From: a virus
Taxonomy: Duplodnaviria; Heunggongvirae; Uroviricota; Caudoviricetes
Direction: 5' to 3' (one strand)
Length of the DNA stretch: 6,750 bases
IMG/VR virus record: IMGVR_UViG_2734482533_000011
Both the position numbers and the translations under genes were made by a program. The notes beneath the pieces are model-generated. The model did not search any database. It was not told the origin of the DNA and saw only the letters and a list, made by a program, of their open reading frames with translations. Positions 980 to 6,750 of the stretch are shown piece after piece (position 1 is the stretch's first letter; each line of letters begins with the position of its first letter).

Positions 980-1462
980 ATGACGAAGAAAAAAGCACAT
1001 AAACCTGGTTCAGCGACCATCGCGCTTAACAAGCGCGCCCGTCACGAATACTTTATCGAAGAAGAGTTCGAAGCGGGACTTGCCCTGCAAGGCTGGGAAG
1101 TTAAATCCCTGCGCGCAGGAAAAGCCAATATCAGCGACAGCTACGTCCTTCTGCGTGACGGAGAGGCATTTCTGTTTGGCGCTAACATCACGCCAATGGC
1201 CGTGGCCTCCACGCATGTGGTGTGCGATCCTACCCGTACCCGCAAGTTACTTCTCAACCAGCGCGAACTGGACTCATTGTACGGTCGCGTCAATCGAGAA
1301 GGCTATACCGTAGTGGCGCTCTCCCTGTACTGGAAAAATGCCTGGTGCAAAGTGAAAATCGGCGTCGCCAAAGGTAAAAAACAGCACGATAAACGTTCAG
1401 ATATCAAAGAACGCGAATGGCAGGTGGATAAAGCACGTATCATGAAAAACGCCCACCGTTAA
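980..1462 (+). CDS. smpB: SmpB, SsrA-binding protein (trans-translation), 160 aa
   Basis: 160-aa [61 protein letters not shown]… is the recognisable enterobacterial SmpB; it lies about 214 nt upstream of the tmRNA gene on the same strand. Confidence 0.97.
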
Positions 1463-1676: not shown

Positions 1677-2039
1677 GGGGCTGATTCTGGATTCGACGGG
1701 ATTTGCGAAACCCAAGGTGCATGCCGAGGGGCGGTTGGCCTCGTAAAAAGCCGCAAAAAATAGTCGCAAACGACGAAAACTACGCTTTAGCAGCTTAATA
1801 ACCTGCTTAGAGCCCTCTCTCCCTAGCCTCCGCTCTTAGGACGGGGATCAAGAGAGGTCAAACCCAAAAGAGATCGCGTGGAAGCCCTGCCTGGGGTTGA
1901 AGCGTTAAAACTTAATCAGGCTAGTTTGTTAGTGGCGTGTCCGTCCGCAGCTGGCAAGCGAATGTAAAGACTGACTAAGCATGTAGTACCGAGGATGTAG
2001 GAATTTCGGACGCGGGTTCAACTCCCGCCAGCTCCACCA
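1677..2039 (+). ncRNA. ssrA: tmRNA (SsrA, 10Sa RNA), 363 nt mature form
   Basis: Starts GGGGCTGATTCTGGATTCGACGGG (tRNA-like acceptor 5' half) and ends GGTTCAACTCCCGCCAGCTCCACCA (T-arm plus CCA). It contains the resume codon and tag reading frame. Length is exactly 363 nt. Confidence 0.97.
1766..1798 (+). other. tmRNA tag-peptide reading frame (ANDENYALAA + TAA)
   Basis: GCA AAC GAC GAA AAC TAC GCT TTA GCA GCT TAA read directly from the sequence. The Escherichia-type tag (N at position 5) points to Escherichia/Shigella rather than Salmonella. Confidence 0.9.
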
Positions 2040-2140: not shown

Positions 2141-2156
2141 AAATGCACGTGCATTT
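2141..2156. repeat. Perfect 16-bp palindrome AAATGCACGTGCATTT
   Basis: Read directly: AAATGCAC followed by its reverse complement GTGCATTT. It lies between the tmRNA 3' end and the terminator hairpin. Confidence 0.6.
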
Positions 2157-2157
2157 C

Positions 2158-2193
2158 AAAAAAGCCTCTGATTATGAAGTCAGAGGCTTTTCT
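2158..2193. terminator. Bidirectional rho-independent terminator
   Basis: AAAAAA, then GCCTCTGA, an 8-nt loop, TCAGAGGC, then TTTTCT. An 8-bp perfect stem flanked by an A-run on one side and a T-run on the other can terminate the minus-strand tail-fibre operon (ending at 2238) and plus-strand read-through from ssrA. Confidence 0.6.
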
Positions 2194-2237: not shown

Positions 2238-2702
2238 TTACGTAACATCAAACGCTCTAATTGTTCCCAAATCCTCCAGACCACTCAGCTCCTCTTTCAT
2301 TTCACGCTGACGGCGATAAATCTCATCGTTGCGATCGACCTGCGCCTGCACCATTGCTGCCGCCAGTTCTTCCAGTTCCGGCATCGACAGTTTCACCTGC
2401 TGATTATCGGCATCATTCCATTCAAACGTGAACGGCTTCGCCTCCTGTTCTGTGCGCCATGCTTCAATTTCCTGACGTCTGGCCTCTCTGGCCGCTTCCA
2501 GCATTTCTGGTGTCACAGTGAATGGGGCTATCTCACCCCATTTGCCACTTTGCAGTTCCTGCCAGATTCGCTGACCCGTCGGTGCGACATCATCAGCGGT
2601 GGCTGTGTAGGGGACTGCCTGGTCCCTGTCGTCAAAAAAAACGTCACAGTCTACTGCGCCACTTTCGGTATAACGGGGATTAATGATTTTTTTAATTTCC
2701 AC
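2238..2702 (-). CDS. Putative tail-fibre assembly/chaperone-like protein partnered with the Stf-like fibre (atypical, family not recognised), about 154 aa
   Basis: ORF immediately downstream of the Stf-like gene. A GTG at 2702..2700 is preceded by GAGGAA with about 6-nt spacing and lies 10 nt after the stf TGA stop; the ORF-track ATG at 2762 would overlap stf by 50 nt. Acidic, helix-rich sequence (…FTVTPEMLEAAREARRQEIEAWRTEQEA…) in the position lambda tfa occupies after stf, but the C-terminus does not match the classical Tfa signature I remember. Confidence 0.6.
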   Translation of the reverse strand: MEIKKIINPRYTESGAVDCDVFFDDRDQAVPYTATADDVAPTGQRIWQELQSGKWGEIAPFTVTPEMLEAAREARRQEIEAWRTEQEAKPFTFEWNDADNQQVKLSMPELEELAAAMVQAQVDRNDEIYRRQREMKEELSGLEDLGTIRAFDVT

Positions 2703-2712
2703 GGTGCATTCC

Positions 2713-3981
2713 TCACGATGTGCGAATAAAAAGCCCGGGCATTGCGCCAGAGACATGAGCATCCGGCACCCCGGACAGGGCGCAATATGACCCCGGTAAT
2801 GAATGCTCTGAACATCCCGTAATGAAAAATTGTGGGGATGCTATATACGTTCCGGTGGGAGTACTGGGCACTGAAATCCCCACCGGTCCCAGTCGTGAGC
2901 CTCTGTATGACTGCCCCCTGACAAGTCTGATGACTTTATCACCGTCAGCTTCTCCCTGGTACGCAGCAATAATCAGCCCGCCAATGTCAGGGTCTCCCCA
3001 TCTGTTGCAGACAGAGCTCGCCACGATTCTGTAAATAATATCTTCTGTGGTTATATTTATTTTCACCCAGCCAGTCAGTCTGGATATGGGCCAGTAGCAG
3101 TAGCGGGTGTGATAAATGGGGCCGTTAATGCCGTAAAAAGTAAGGGATTTGGCTCTGTACCTCGGTTCTGTTGTCTCAGGGCGTGCATCAGTCCACCGGA
3201 TGCTGAGCACCCCTTCAAACCGTGTGTCGGGTATGATGATGTCGTAGGGGCCAGCAACGGAATATTCACCTGGCAGCGCATTCCTTACCCAGGCCAGGAA
3301 ATCACTCTTAGTGTCAAAACGGATAACATCTTCAGGCAGAAAAGCACACCCAAAGCCGAATGCGCCGGGTATCGCCAGACGGCCTTTTGTCCGGTCGTAA
3401 ATGTCGCTCTGTGCTTCCATCGTGGCCGCACTTTTCAGCCCCAGATTATCCCGGGACTTCTGTTGTGCCTTTTCGCCTGCTGCTGCGATTTCAGACAGAT
3501 GGTTAGCCGTTTTCAGAGTGCCGGTCAGCGCAGCATCAATGTCATTTTTGGCCTGCTCTGCTGCGCGGGCATAACCTGCGGCTGCCGCCACATCCTGCGC
3601 CGTCTGCTGTGCGTTTCCGGCTGCGGCCCCGGCGCTCTGCTGCGCCTGCGCCACCATTTCCTCAAAGCGTTTGACGACATCCGGTTTCAGGTCGCCCTCA
3701 TCAGGAGCAATCAGAAAGTCATTCAGCGTGCCGGGCTTTGAGTCGTCGTATACAGCAATGTCGCCAACACAGTACTCGTCGCGCCAGTCCCGTTTCAGAT
3801 ACACGCAATATTTTCCGACCTGTGCCTCAAACGAATATTCACCGTTATTTCCGGTCACTACATCAGCCCTGGTACGCATCACCACTTCTGAGGTGTTTAC
3901 ACGGGATTTCAGAATAATCTGGCATCCGGACATGGGGATGCCTGCGCCATCAGTCAGCGCACCTGATATCACTACAGACAT
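2713..3981 (-). CDS. Side tail fibre protein, lambda Stf-like N-terminal domain with a divergent C-terminal receptor-binding region, 422 aa
   Basis: N-terminus MSVVISGALTDGAGIPMSGCQIILKSRVNTSEVV…YDDSKPGTLNDFLIAPDEGDLKPDVVKRFEEMV parallels lambda Stf (MAVKISGVLKDGTGKPVQNCTIQLKARRNSTTVV…YEDSQPGTLNDFLCAMTEDDARPEVLRRLELMV), followed by an Ala/Gln-rich shaft segment. The C-terminal ~230 aa are not recognisable to me. Confidence 0.85.
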   Translation of the reverse strand: MSVVISGALTDGAGIPMSGCQIILKSRVNTSEVVMRTRADVVTGNNGEYSFEAQVGKYCVYLKRDWRDEYCVGDIAVYDDSKPGTLNDFLIAPDEGDLKPDVVKRFEEMVAQAQQSAGAAAGNAQQTAQDVAAAAGYARAAEQAKNDIDAALTGTLKTANHLSEIAAAGEKAQQKSRDNLGLKSAATMEAQSDIYDRTKGRLAIPGAFGFGCAFLPEDVIRFDTKSDFLAWVRNALPGEYSVAGPYDIIIPDTRFEGVLSIRWTDARPETTEPRYRAKSLTFYGINGPIYHTRYCYWPISRLTGWVKINITTEDIIYRIVASSVCNRWGDPDIGGLIIAAYQGEADGDKVIRLVRGQSYRGSRLGPVGISVPSTPTGTYIASPQFFITGCSEHSLPGSYCALSGVPDAHVSGAMPGLFIRTS

Positions 3982-4004
3982 AGTTTTTCTCGCGATAAAT
4001 TAAA

Positions 4005-4550
4005 TCAGGAAGAACCTTCCGGAGAGACGGACCATTCAATGGCGTTATATGAGGATTTATCAGTGATGGTGCTGAAATCCATCGCCTGCAGCGATTTCGC
4101 GTAAATACGGTACGCTTTCAGTTTTTCCCGGTCTTCGTCGCTGATTAGCCCCAGCAGCAGGTCTTCTTCCCATTCCCCTGTCCGGGCACTGACCTGAGCC
4201 AGAAGGGCATCACGCTCATCTTCCGCTTTGAGTCTGTAGTCAAAGACAAATTCATCATTGCGGTAAAACCAGTAACCCGGCGCGGTAATGCGGCGGTTGG
4301 CGGTAATATCAGGAACTTCAATAACACTGGCGTTACGGGGTTCAATGCCTGTCACATCCTTACCGACCCACACCACGCGCCCGTCTCCGGTGTAAACCAT
4401 TTTTATGGTGTCACTGGCAAAGTTCTTCTGTTCTTCATACCAGTTTTTGCCGTCTTCCGAAAAAAGCCAGGTGACATCATACTGTTTTGTCAGCTGATAT
4501 TATTCCGCGGTTTTCGGATTACCTGCCGTAATATTTTTTAAATGCAACAT
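4005..4550 (-). pseudogene. Tail-fibre assembly protein (Tfa, Caudovirales TAP family) interrupted by an in-frame TAA at 4502..4500
   Basis: ATG at 4550..4548 (2 nt after the fibre-gene stop) opens MLHLKNITAGNPKTAE, then TAA, then the same frame continues YQLTKQYDVTWLFSEDGKNWYEEQKNFASDTIK-MVYTG…VIEVPDITANRR… to a stop at 4005. The N-terminal and central motifs match Tfa/TfaE-type chaperones as I recall them. The ORF track only reports the 3' part (4005..4400). Confidence 0.7.
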
Positions 4551-4552
4551 TG

Positions 4553-5593
4553 TTAAATACTCGCTACGTTATACCAGGTGCCATTAATCAGTTTTTGCAG
4601 CGGTCGGTAATACACGCCGTTGACGTTATCCGCTGAGTTACGGCCGGTATCCGATATCGATATCCCTGACAGCCCGTGTCCCGAAGGTGAGCGAAATGTC
4701 CACGAAACGGTGTTACTGCCGGGGGGGTAATACATTTCATAACCATACCGCACATCCTGCACGCCACCATTTCGCTGCTGGTAACGGGCATCAAAGTTTC
4801 CGTAGTCTGACGGTGTTACCCGTCCTGTAACGTTTACAGCTTTATTACTCTGGATACTGCCACTCTGAAAACGCAACACATGCACGCTATTGGCATAAAC
4901 ATCCAGCAGGCCATCACCATTCTGTTTGAATCCGGTGTCATTATCACCAAGAACAATTGAATTCCCCCCCAGGGCGTTCTGAACGCCGATACCCAGCGCA
5001 CCATTGACCTGCGAACCACCGCCAACAGACACTTTATGCGACATGGATATTTCACCCGTCCGCAGATTAATGGTGAACGGGCGCAGGGGACCAATATCGC
5101 CATTTTCCCCCTGACCTTCACTGGTGGGAATAAGGTGCAGGCACTCTTCCGAACGACGAAAAATCAGGCCAAAAGCTTCGTTGAAAATCCTCAGCGCATT
5201 AACACCACGGATTTTCAGCTCTCCGGTCATGGTGTCGCCATCACGCTGAACGGCATTTTTTGCCTTATCCACCGTGGGTTTTAATCCGAGGTTTTCAACA
5301 GCCTCATCCCTGTCTTCCACATCCGAAAGGTTATTTTTTATCAGCAATGCCTCTTCGTTAATTGCACCGCCCACCAGCAATAATATAGCCTTATATAGCT
5401 GGTCGTGTTCTTCTTTATTCAGTTCTATCCCGGCCTTCTCAATGACACCACAGATTTCCTCCTGAATGGCATTCCACATGGCACTGTTCAGCCAGGTAGC
5501 AAGACGTCCTGTGCGAAGATTTCCGTCAGTAAATCCGTTCTTACCCGGACCAAACTTATCTTTTACCGCAGTCAGCGTATCAATCCTGTGCAT
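4553..5593 (-). CDS. Tail fibre protein, Mu S / P2 gpH-type C-terminal receptor-binding region, about 346 aa
   Basis: C-terminal segment …NALGGNSIVLGDNDTGFKQNGDGLLDVYANS…YGNFDARY…YRPLQKLINGTWYNVASI closely parallels the P2 gpH / Mu S-type fibre C-terminus as I remember it. Probable start is the ATG at 5593 (GAGGA 5 nt upstream); the ORF-track start at 5605 lacks an SD. Overlaps the upstream gene stop. Confidence 0.85.
   Translation of the reverse strand: MHRIDTLTAVKDKFGPGKNGFTDGNLRTGRLATWLNSAMWNAIQEEICGVIEKAGIELNKEEHDQLYKAILLLVGGAINEEALLIKNNLSDVEDRDEAVENLGLKPTVDKAKNAVQRDGDTMTGELKIRGVNALRIFNEAFGLIFRRSEECLHLIPTSEGQGENGDIGPLRPFTINLRTGEISMSHKVSVGGGSQVNGALGIGVQNALGGNSIVLGDNDTGFKQNGDGLLDVYANSVHVLRFQSGSIQSNKAVNVTGRVTPSDYGNFDARYQQRNGGVQDVRYGYEMYYPPGSNTVSWTFRSPSGHGLSGISISDTGRNSADNVNGVYYRPLQKLINGTWYNVASI
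5278..5303 (-). other. gix/hix-like recombination half-site inside the tail-fibre gene (possible relic crossover site)
   Basis: Minus strand reads CTGTTGAAAACC-TC-GGATTAAAACCC. The left arm and central TC resemble Hin/Gin/Pin sites (hixL TTCTTGAAAACC, gix core AAAACCTCGG) as I recall them; the right arm is a poor match. Lies about 100 codons into the fibre gene. Confidence 0.3.
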
Positions 5594-6170
5594 CTTCATC
5601 CTCATCTGGATAGGAAAATAAAACGACGGTGTGTGACGGACATAATTTATTAATCACGCACTCCGCAACCGTATCCCCCCACGTCCGGATCGGTGTGTTG
5701 CAGGCGTCCGTGCATGTCTGCCACTGAGCACCGGCATCCATCGGCAACGTCACACGCCAGAAATAACGCCAGCGATCTCCCCATTCCGGATCGGGGCTTG
5801 CATCCAAGTGCTGGAACTGTTCGATCGTTACGCCGGTATATCCCAGCGCCTCAAGCTGATCCAGGAAGAACTGCTCATTTATGCCACCAGCCACATTGGC
5901 TTTTGCTTCAAGACGTTGCTGACGCTGGCGTAATGTCTGGGTTCCGACAGGGGAACAGGAATCAGGTAAACCATACAATTCTTCATAACGTTCAATCAGC
6001 TCTGTGGACTGACCGGGATCGATTTCAATCACCAGTTCATCAGCCCGCTGGTGAACACGCACAAGCGATGGTGCCAGACCGTCAAGTACACCGTCGGTAT
6101 CTGACCATGCAGGCCCCGGCGGCATCAGTCCGTACAGCAGCTTTGTATAATCATCCTGTAACGAATCCAT
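5580..6170 (-). CDS. Phage tail/baseplate-associated protein, DUF2313 family (YmfQ / Mu gp48-like), 196 aa
   Basis: 196-aa ORF sited between the baseplate J-like gene and the tail fibre gene, the conserved position of Mu gp48 / e14 YmfQ-type genes. Its ATG overlaps the upstream stop (TAATG), indicating translational coupling. Confidence 0.8.
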   Translation of the reverse strand: MDSLQDDYTKLLYGLMPPGPAWSDTDGVLDGLAPSLVRVHQRADELVIEIDPGQSTELIERYEELYGLPDSCSPVGTQTLRQRQQRLEAKANVAGGINEQFFLDQLEALGYTGVTIEQFQHLDASPDPEWGDRWRYFWRVTLPMDAGAQWQTCTDACNTPIRTWGDTVAECVINKLCPSHTVVLFSYPDEDEDAQD

Positions 6171-6682
6171 TATTTACTCCTTGCCGGGTCATAAGCCTGC
6201 CAGGTGATCTCGCCGAGCACCGGAAGCTCGGTCTCCCCCAGGTCAATATCCGATGAAGGGACGATTAACCGGTGGGCCACTTCACCAGCAGACAAACTGA
6301 TGGCCTCACTGATTCTGGACAGATACATACGCCCCTCTGGCACACCATCCCGTAACATCAGTGCATTCAGCTCTGCTTTTATTGCAGTCCTGATCTGCGG
6401 TGTGTCTTTCGATAATGCAATCGTCATCGGGATGACTTTTTCTGTGGCACCGAATACATACAATCCGCTTCCGGCAACAGGTGCCAGAGGAAGGATGTGG
6501 TCCCTGACTGCGTTAATCACGCTTTCATCCGGGGCCGGGCGTTCCGGATCGTTTGTCGCCACCATCACGCCAACCGTTCCAGTGCCTTTCCAGTGTCTGA
6601 AAGTCCATGCACGGTTAATACCCTGAACTTCTTTCGCCCAGATAACATAATCAGGGTCTGCGCCCCCGGTGATGCTGCCAAC
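6170..6682 (-). CDS. Baseplate J-like protein (Mu gp47 / P2 gpJ family), C-terminal portion; the 5' part appears disrupted
   Basis: The frame is open from 6682 down to the stop at 6170 and encodes …GADPDYVIWAKEVQGINRAWTF…VMVATNDPERP…, reminiscent of the central and C-terminal regions of baseplate J proteins. An in-frame TAA sits at 6685..6683 and the other two minus-strand frames are also blocked between about 6651 and 6693, so the full-length gene is not intact in this window. The ORF track starts it at GTG 6568. Confidence 0.65.
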   Translation of the reverse strand, partial: VGSITGGADPDYVIWAKEVQGINRAWTFRHWKGTGTVGVMVATNDPERPAPDESVINAVRDHILPLAPVAGSGLYVFGATEKVIPMTIALSKDTPQIRTAIKAELNALMLRDGVPEGRMYLSRISEAISLSAGEVAHRLIVPSSDIDLGETELPVLGEITWQAYDPARSK

Positions 6683-6750
6683 TTACTGATTTAGTGTATG
6701 ATGGTGTTTTTGAGGTGCTCCAGTGGCTTCTGTTTCTATCAGCTGTCCCT

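Follow-up and report, generated by a model that had tools for sequence, protein, structure and literature searches.

The crossover sites of DNA invertases (hix, gix, cix and pix) are taken here as 26-bp elements in which two imperfectly symmetrical 12-bp half-sites flank a 2-bp core. Hin and Gin bind as dimers, and the wild-type Din invertases show a strong bias towards intramolecular inversion. In Mu, the annotated boundary of the G segment (L004 2467) falls on the TC of TTATCCAAAACC-TC-GGTTTACAGGAA, which codes IQNLGLQE in gene S, while the crossover in P1 cixL/cixR (L005 7225/7226) lies in ...AACC-TT-GGTTTAAGAGAA, coding Y-L-G-L-R-E; both sit on the central dinucleotide of homologous 26-mers. 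In e14, pixL within stfP reads CTCTCGAAAACC-TT-GGTTTGGGAGAA and codes L-E-N-L-G-L-G-E, with a partner site about 50-80 bp upstream of pinE, and this reading agrees with the published inverted repeat of the P segment, TTGGTTTGGGAGAAGG (PMC12529663). The sites of EC958, which were confirmed by long-read sequencing and assembly, have the same GGTTTAnnnGAA arm (PMC4134206, Table 3).

An invertase can also act on sites located in a different prophage, and for real sites such trans action of Pin enzymes is well documented (PMC12529663, PMC4134206); the local absence of an invertase alone is therefore no proof that a site is inactive. For example, PinQ, PinR and PinE all invert the P segment of e14, although PinQ and PinR come from another prophage (PMC12529663), and the Phi4 segment of EC958 inverts despite the truncation of its own invertase, in a study that also cites the work on Cin quasi-sites (PMC4134206). 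According to the account given in that paper, these quasi-sites (cixQ) were defined by observed recombination (Iida & Hiestand-Nauer 1986/87, via PMC4134206). The nearest characterised phage to the locus described below is phiP27 (NC_003356), a Stx2e phage whose genome ends with L52 (baseplate J), L53, L54 (fibre), L55 (tfa), L56 (fibre), L57 and attR.

The window, by which we mean the whole 6,750-nucleotide stretch of DNA that was analysed, has a layout like that of this end of phiP27 (Table 1), and the DNA of the two is 93% identical over window positions 4749-6667 (91% over 4749-5700). An unbroken series of minus-strand phage tail genes runs from 2238 to 6568. In the tail-fibre assembly gene, the stop gives TAE*YQL in the window versus TAEQYQL in an E. 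coli relative, and the remainder of the gene is a 131-aa open reading frame (4005-4400), while the DUF4376 gene is without ~95-99 nt near 2415 that are present in its relatives. The prophage in the window is a decayed, dead remnant, and probably no part of it is in use.

Table 1. Features of the window and their positions.
Feature	Position	Strand	Remarks
smpB	980..1462		Upstream of ssrA
ssrA (tmRNA)	1677..2039	+	ARAGORN; the prophage remnant abuts its 3' end
DUF4376 protein gene	2238..2762	-	Pfam; last prophage gene before ssrA
Second complete tail-fibre gene, in tandem	2713..3981	-	422 aa; lambda-Stf-type 'prophage tail fibre N-terminal' domain (Pfam)
Tail-fibre assembly pseudogene	4005..4550	-	Caudo_TAP, E=7e-21; nonsense at codon 17 (~4502-4500)
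Tail-fibre gene	4553..5605	-	350 aa; homologue of phiP27 L54, Mu S (G+ form) and the e14 StfP N-terminus
Linker cassette, ~125 bp	5215..5339	-	KNNLSDVEDxDEAVENLGLKPTVDKAKNAVQRDGDTMTG; mosaic junctions at both ends
Crossover-site-like 26-bp motif	5276..5301	-	Proximal arm and core gix/pix/hix-like, distal arm unlike
YmfQ/Mu gp48-type baseplate gene	5580..6170	-	Pfam; directly upstream of the fibre gene
Baseplate J/gp47 gene, 3' part	6170..6667	-	Pfam; cut by IS1; ORF 6170-6568
IS1 end	6668..6750	.	IS1 match; truncates the prophage

The 350-aa fibre gene follows baseplate J (gp47) and gp48/YmfQ genes (Pfam Baseplate_J and Phage_Mu_Gp48), an order shared with phiP27, Mu and e14. BLASTP showed that its product is a full-length homologue of Mu S, matching in three stretches: the N-terminus including ALLIKNNLS (36% identity over residues 37-97), the block that contains the site (VENLGLKPTVDKAKNAVQRDGDTMTGEL aligned to IQNLGLQETVNRARNAVQKNGDTLSGGL), and 251 aa of Sv (30% identity, E=9e-20), which extends to the common C-terminus INGTWYNVAS. 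The N-terminus is 58% identical to that of e14 StfP over residues 5-69 (E=4e-22). The protein thus shares with the Mu S/StfP/L54-type fibres their gene order, their N-terminal region, an Sv-like distal domain and a U/Tfa-type gene downstream.

A first-pass annotation of this DNA had reported a crossover-like site of the gix/hix type at 5278-5303, inside the fibre gene. The presence of a crossover-like sequence in this gene is confirmed and the motif is indeed on the minus strand, although those coordinates are 2 nt off. A pattern search of the window located the 13-mer TTGAAAACCTCGG at 5298-5286 on the minus strand and, in the register of the known sites, the 26-mer is CTGTTGAAAACC-TC-GGATTAAAACCC at 5301-5276, with its central TC at 5289-5288. 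The minus strand around it reads GAG GCT GTT GAA AAC CTC GGA TTA AAA CCC ACG, and the 26-mer codes VENLGLKP, which corresponds to residues 103-110 of the fibre. When the window fibre was aligned with phiP27 L54, Mu S and e14 StfP, N105, L106, G107 and L108 were among the invariant columns, and VENLGLKP fell column for column on IQNLGLQE of Mu gixL and LENLGLGE of e14 pixL. The comparison with Mu S, P1 and e14 stfP that had been proposed as a check therefore has the motif coincide with the gix/pix codons, and the earlier view that it lies where the N-terminal part of the fibre meets the distal part is supported by the alignments to Mu S and StfP. The motif thus lies at the constant/variable junction, where Sc meets Sv, and its resemblance to crossover sites reflects homology rather than chance. 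A count on the two sequences gives agreement at 16/26 positions between the window 26-mer and Mu gix. The AAC-CTC-GGx-TTA codons are shared with Mu gix though the peptide does not force them, which makes a past link with invertible fibres plausible, and an older origin in common with such fibres is possible.

Genuine crossover sites were collected from 80 PinE-like invertase loci fetched from IMG/VR. In 55 of them two paired sites are present, the first within a fibre gene that lies 1-4.5 kb upstream of the invertase and the second ~80 bp upstream of it. Together with the sites of Mu, P1 and e14, these 55 pairs provided 28 unique sites and 31 unique half-sites for a scoring matrix, with a half-site consensus of T-T-C/A/T-T-C-n-n-A-A-A-C-C. 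Positions 8 and 10 of the half-site are A in 31/31 cases, position 11 is C in 29/31 and position 2 is T in 27/31. The distal arm is GGT(T/A)T-nnnn-GA/GC in the 27 of 28 sites that are in fibre-coding orientation, the remaining one being a pix site listed in reverse orientation. Read in the coding direction, the arm on the segment side is GGTTT(A/G)-nnn-GAA essentially without exception, corresponding to Gly (GGT), Leu (TTR), any codon and Glu, and the Gly codon is GGT in every true site of the set.

With this matrix, true half-sites score from 5.0 to 18.1 bits and true full sites from 23.1 to 34.4 bits. The proximal arm of the window motif, CTGTTGAAAACC, scores 7.0 bits, a value reached or surpassed by just 5/13,478 12-mers in the window, and is 1 nt away from CTCTTGAAAACC, a variant found in a locus with an invertase and a partner site (L123). 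The distal arm GGATTAAAACCC, read as GGGTTTTAATCC, scores -4.8 bits and has T at position 10, which is A in all 31 true half-sites. The full site therefore amounts to 2.2 bits (2.18), a score attained by 78% of shuffled windows, and the full-site scan returned 1.9 and 1.4 bits at two unrelated positions of the window. As a two-armed 26-bp site, the motif has a proximal half within the true range, a distal half outside it and a full score below 23.1 bits. This is in line with the original description of a half-site match, as one arm and the central dinucleotide agree and the other arm does not, and the scores indicate that the motif is probably not a working crossover site.

Relatives of the fibre were represented by 77 IMG/VR loci that encode its first 140 residues or parts thereof, ~15 of which extend for some 8 kb past the site on its downstream side. 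The motif occurs in 32 distinct sequence contexts, among which it changes at synonymous third positions only: Asn is coded by AAC (29) or AAT (3), Gly by GGA (28), GGG (3) or GGC (1) but never by GGT, and Leu by TTA (31) or TTG (1). The change from AAC to AAT alters position 11 of the half-site, and the distal arm is absent in 32/32 contexts. More distant fibres from loci without an invertase (L168, L170, L172 and L174) have NLGL at the same residue with unrelated codons, such as AAT TTG GGG TTA and AAT CTG GGA CTT, while both arms score at least 9 bits in the invertase-positive Mangrovibacter, Scandinavium and E. coli e14. This synonymous-only pattern is that of a coding sequence under protein-level constraint, not of a DNA site under selection.

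We therefore consider it likely that the flagged sequence codes for a conserved [N/Y]-L-G-L linker in a fibre of the Mu S/StfP/L54 type, and that its resemblance to a half-site comes from descent and protein constraint. The linker lies between the N-terminal part, which serves baseplate attachment, and the distal shaft with the receptor-binding part. In invertase-bearing relatives (Mu, P1, e14 and P2-like prophages), these codons also serve as a 26-bp crossover site, the second arm of which needs Gly to be coded by GGT and the next two codons to be x-Glu (nnn GAA). The window reads NLGL-K-P with GGA for Gly, and its crossover likeness is accordingly limited to the proximal arm and the TC core. 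The window belongs to the phiP27 lineage, which has two complete tandem fibres instead of an invertible segment, and the resemblance would stem from the common descent of the fibre genes together with constraint on the protein, rather than from selection for a recombination site. We infer that an invertase dimer would not be productively bound at the window motif and that no recombination would occur there.

A search for the other components of an inversion system was carried out in the window and in its relatives. No Pin/Gin/Cin homologue was detected in the window by tblastn (best E=9.8); PinE, Gin and Cin queries retrieved nothing at E<=1e-10 from the window, L001, L002 and the 77 related loci, and, at E<=10, nothing beyond noise hits from L006, the window and the entire phiP27 genome. 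Pattern search with 2 mismatches, a repeat finder and a matrix scan revealed no further copy of the site in the window, in either orientation. The NLGL of the 422-aa fibre (3436-3447) was considered as a direct-repeat partner and rejected, as it is coded by AATCTGGGGCTG, which is unlike a crossover site. L006 (16.4 kb) represents the same locus, being 99.9% identical to the window and containing both the IS1 junction and the 3' end of ssrA; an inverted partner site is absent from it and from the whole phiP27 genome, and neither an invertase nor a full site was found in L006 within 8 kb either side of the matched fibre segment. The complete phiP27 genome (42.6 kb) likewise has no invertase and no full site, and its annotated recombinases consist only of a site-specific integrase and an excisionase. 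There is no inverted distal fibre and assembly cassette in the window, where every open reading frame from 2238 to 6568 has minus-strand orientation and the second fibre, which is complete, is arranged in tandem. The first-pass statement that no invertase or inverted alternative fibre lies between the motif and ssrA is thus upheld by tblastn and by the uniform strand of the open reading frames, and the search it had recommended for an inverted copy and a serine recombinase yielded neither in the window, L006, phiP27 or the 77 relatives. A close relative that bears an invertase was also sought and not obtained, with 0/77 IMG/VR loci encoding one; the fibre N-termini that come closest among the 80 PinE-type loci show 58-60% identity, apart from one that reaches 79% over 29 residues.

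These results weigh on the proposal that the motif is a relic of an ancestral invertible segment, under which the forerunner of the phiP27-type fibre gene carried an invertible segment like that of Mu, both the invertase and the inverted Sv'-U' cassette have disappeared, and the arm on the segment side has drifted. The collinearity of the fibre with Mu S (Sc, site, Sv), its gix-like codons and TC core, and a proximal arm that is still inside the functional range are all compatible with such a history, as is the presence of pin in sister lineages that have this baseplate J-YmfQ-fibre order, among them e14 and many further loci. However, invertase, partner site and inverted cassette are missing from all members of the lineage that were sampled, the second fibre lies downstream in tandem on the same strand, and the distal arm is missing from every one of the 32 contexts. 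In addition, real orphan sites retain both arms. A wider scan of species-representative genomes revealed a continuum, within which four E. coli/Shigella loci (L184, L185, L196 and L197) were found to have a perfect pix site, with arms of 14.6 and 18.1 bits, and no invertase or partner within ~8 kb either side; these two intact arms are what a recent relic looks like. The data are compatible with either gain or loss of inversion, and we regard descent from a lost invertible segment as unlikely.

The mosaic structure of the fibre gene was surveyed by comparing its nucleotide sequence with the 77 loci and with E. coli complete genomes, of which 60 records were sampled from 183 that matched. Homology breakpoints recur at ~5339 and 5332, at 5283 and 5271, at 5215-5230, at 5054-5061, at 4840/4860 and at 4749, while 5289/5288 is not among them, whether in the 77 viral loci or in the classes of junction present in the 60 of 183 E. 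coli records. The linker cassette is common to fibres with an N-terminus of the phiP27/Mu-S type and to fibres with a different N-terminus (L051, MNGLILTTSGAAEIEAAY...), which we judge to be P2-H-like, and it is also present in fibres with different distal parts (L030: ...GDTMTGKLTLPQTSGFGVNT). The joints observed lie at the edges of this conserved linker, as would be expected of homologous or illegitimate recombination rather than of invertase action, and the 125-bp block plausibly acts as a homology patch, with ordinary recombination at its edges swapping fibre modules between phages. One E. coli record (H75) has homology that begins exactly where the 26-mer does, at 5301, but this was rejected as a site-specific junction because it corresponds to the insertion of an IS21-family element (ISEc62).

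The other origin that had been put forward, a scar of distal-module exchange in which the distal module was joined to the N-terminal part by recombination at this very site, is less likely still than a lost invertible segment. The site is certainly inside a mosaic zone: a group of 13 loci (L069-L081) has the distal part in common at 78-90% DNA identity, and this homology ends at 5283 or 5271, which is 5-17 nt from the motif centre. Furthermore, the distal domain of the window fibre has homologues (51-53% over the C-terminal 154 aa) within the invertible segments of P2-like prophages (L139, L151 and L154), where distal modules are joined via genuine sites coding T-Y-L-G-L-G-E, and the fibre therefore draws on the same module pool. 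However, the L069-L081 loci carry SKAVKAAMDKAK where the window has NLGLKPTVDKAK. A partner of this type is without NLGL and would therefore have no site to cross over with, and its junction is ambiguous from ~5283 to 5268, so this class was rejected as a scar at the site. The absence of any sampled junction at 5289/5288 also speaks against an exchange at the motif, as do the junctions at 5339/5332 and 5215-5230, which leave the site within the common cassette, and the bias of Din invertases towards intramolecular inversion.

Marginally less probable again is the use of the motif in trans, whereby a Pin-family invertase encoded elsewhere in the host would occasionally recombine the half-site with a genuine site. 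The activity of PinQ and PinR from another prophage (PMC12529663) and the inversion of EC958 Phi4 with its own invertase truncated (PMC4134206) provide precedents, and the proximal arm of the motif is good and its core is TC, as in gix. These features are offset by a full-site score at chance level, by T rather than the invariant A at position 10 of the distal arm, by the TT cores of e14-type pix sites and by the state of the element, which is a dead remnant; in addition, the matching E. coli records that were sampled show no rearranged junction. It is equally improbable that low-frequency trans use of such a quasi-site fuses the fibre N-terminus to modules of invertase-bearing prophages, or inverts the chromosome between prophages. 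The findings lend support neither to use in trans nor to an ancient invertible ancestor. If the quasi-site reading were true, invertase-less and invertase-bearing prophages would belong to one exchange pool of host-range modules. A pure chance match unrelated to crossover sites, which the first-pass annotation had allowed for, is barely credible: it describes the motif as a two-armed 26-bp site, whose score most shuffled windows attain, but is refuted by the alignment of the motif, in a homologous gene and between conserved flanking sequences, to Mu gixL and e14 pixL, and by the exact 13-mer, for which ~2e-4 occurrences are expected in the window from sequence length alone (0.17 with up to 2 mismatches).

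The motif is thus a known conserved fibre linker; it matters little as it stands, other than to illustrate how an invertase site can be called falsely. Din-type sites are overlaid on the conserved [N/Y]LGL coding motif, and any fibre gene of the Mu S/StfP type can therefore show a match to a half-site plus core. For annotators, a real site can be recognised by Gly coded by GGT, an arm of GGTTT-nnnn-GAA (peptide G-L-x-E) and a partner ~80 bp upstream of a pin-like gene.

Among the characterised systems, Mu gixL occupies the homologous gene and codons and has the same AAAACC-TC-GG-TTA core as the window, and the protein blocks that flank it in S are also those of the window fibre, with ALLIKNNLS upstream and TVxxAxNAVQxxGDTxxGxL downstream. 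Mu differs in its second arm, GGTTTACAGGAA, and in possessing gin, a gixR in inverted orientation and an inverted S'v-U' cassette, all of which are absent from the window, where the distal arm is GGATTAAAACCC. The e14 prophage has the same upstream order of baseplate J, YmfQ and fibre, with ENLGL at the equivalent residue, but its pix site has a TT core instead of TC and is accompanied by a partner site and inverted tfaE-stfE. The Cin quasi-sites are partial matches to a crossover site like that of the window, and the identity of the central dinucleotide matters for them; recombination was observed at cixQ, whereas the window motif is known from sequence alone. The closest parallel is phiP27, from which the window copy differs in its truncation by IS1, in the nonsense codon in tfa, in the last ~65 aa of the fibre compared with L54, and in its location at ssrA, the phiP27 fibre genes being at the attR end of the record. 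The site sequence in phiP27 L54 is identical to that in the window.

An approximately 125-bp linker cassette (5215–5339) surrounds the crossover-like 26-mer of the Mu S-type tail-fibre gene and is 89–96% identical among related fibre loci (L030 and L044–L068, including L051). It occurs in fibres whose N-termini fall into two or more unrelated types and whose distal parts are of several kinds, with mosaic junctions at its edges. In E. coli Z0117EC0005 (L164, ~5208–6000), a related fibre gene is interrupted by the IS21-family element ISEc62, and homology to the window picks up again where the 26-mer begins (5301), which is probably a coincidence. The codons AAT CTG GGG CTG, used for the NLGL motif of the window's second fibre, demonstrate that crossover-like DNA is not forced by the peptide.

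Coordinates of additional features in the window
Feature	Position	Strand	Remarks
G+C-rich hairpin with flanking A and T runs	2155–2192		AAAAAAGCCTCTGATTATGAAGTCAGAGGCTTTTCT; in the ssrA–DUF4376 intergenic region
NLGL motif (SRDNLGLKS) of the second fibre	3436–3447	minus	fibre of 422 aa with Stf-type N-terminus
Tail-fibre assembly gene	4005–4550	minus	nonsense codon at codon 17 (4500–4502)
IS1 element end	6668–6750		cuts off the baseplate J gene

The closest complete-genome relative is E. coli FDAARGOS_944 (L001), where a frameshifted ipaH-type type III secretion effector gene (L001 6193–7834) adjoins the equivalent prophage end, a hint that prophages of this type have a Shigella or EIEC-like background. 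The nonsense codon is apparent when the assembly-gene peptides are compared (TAE*YQL in the window versus TAEQYQL in E. coli FDAARGOS_944), and a 131-aa ORF is all that remains of the tail-fibre assembly gene in the window, which is therefore a pseudogene. The DUF4376 gene, the last prophage gene before ssrA, lacks ~95–99 nt near 2415–2420 that are present in both L001 and L006, an IMG/VR contig of the same locus, and its ORF encodes 174 aa in the window versus 207 aa in L001.

L006 is 99.9% identical to the window across 2414–6750 and features the same junction between IS1 and the baseplate J gene. At the other end, similarity between L006 (11290–11704) and the window begins at 2002, covering the final 38 nt of ssrA (2002–2039), while the rest of ssrA and smpB have no match in this contig. 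This limited match suggests that the attachment core is the 3′ end of ssrA and that the L006 genome continues past it into other DNA, possibly a second element. The hairpin that follows ssrA in the window looks like a bidirectional intrinsic terminator.

Neither an invertase nor a partner site is present within ~8 kb either side of the perfect e14-type pix sites (CTCTCGAAAACCTTGGTTTGGGAGAA) in StfP-like genes of Shigella flexneri and E. coli chromosomes (position 8278 in L184 and L185, and 8215 in L196 and L197), and these look like genuine orphan sites.
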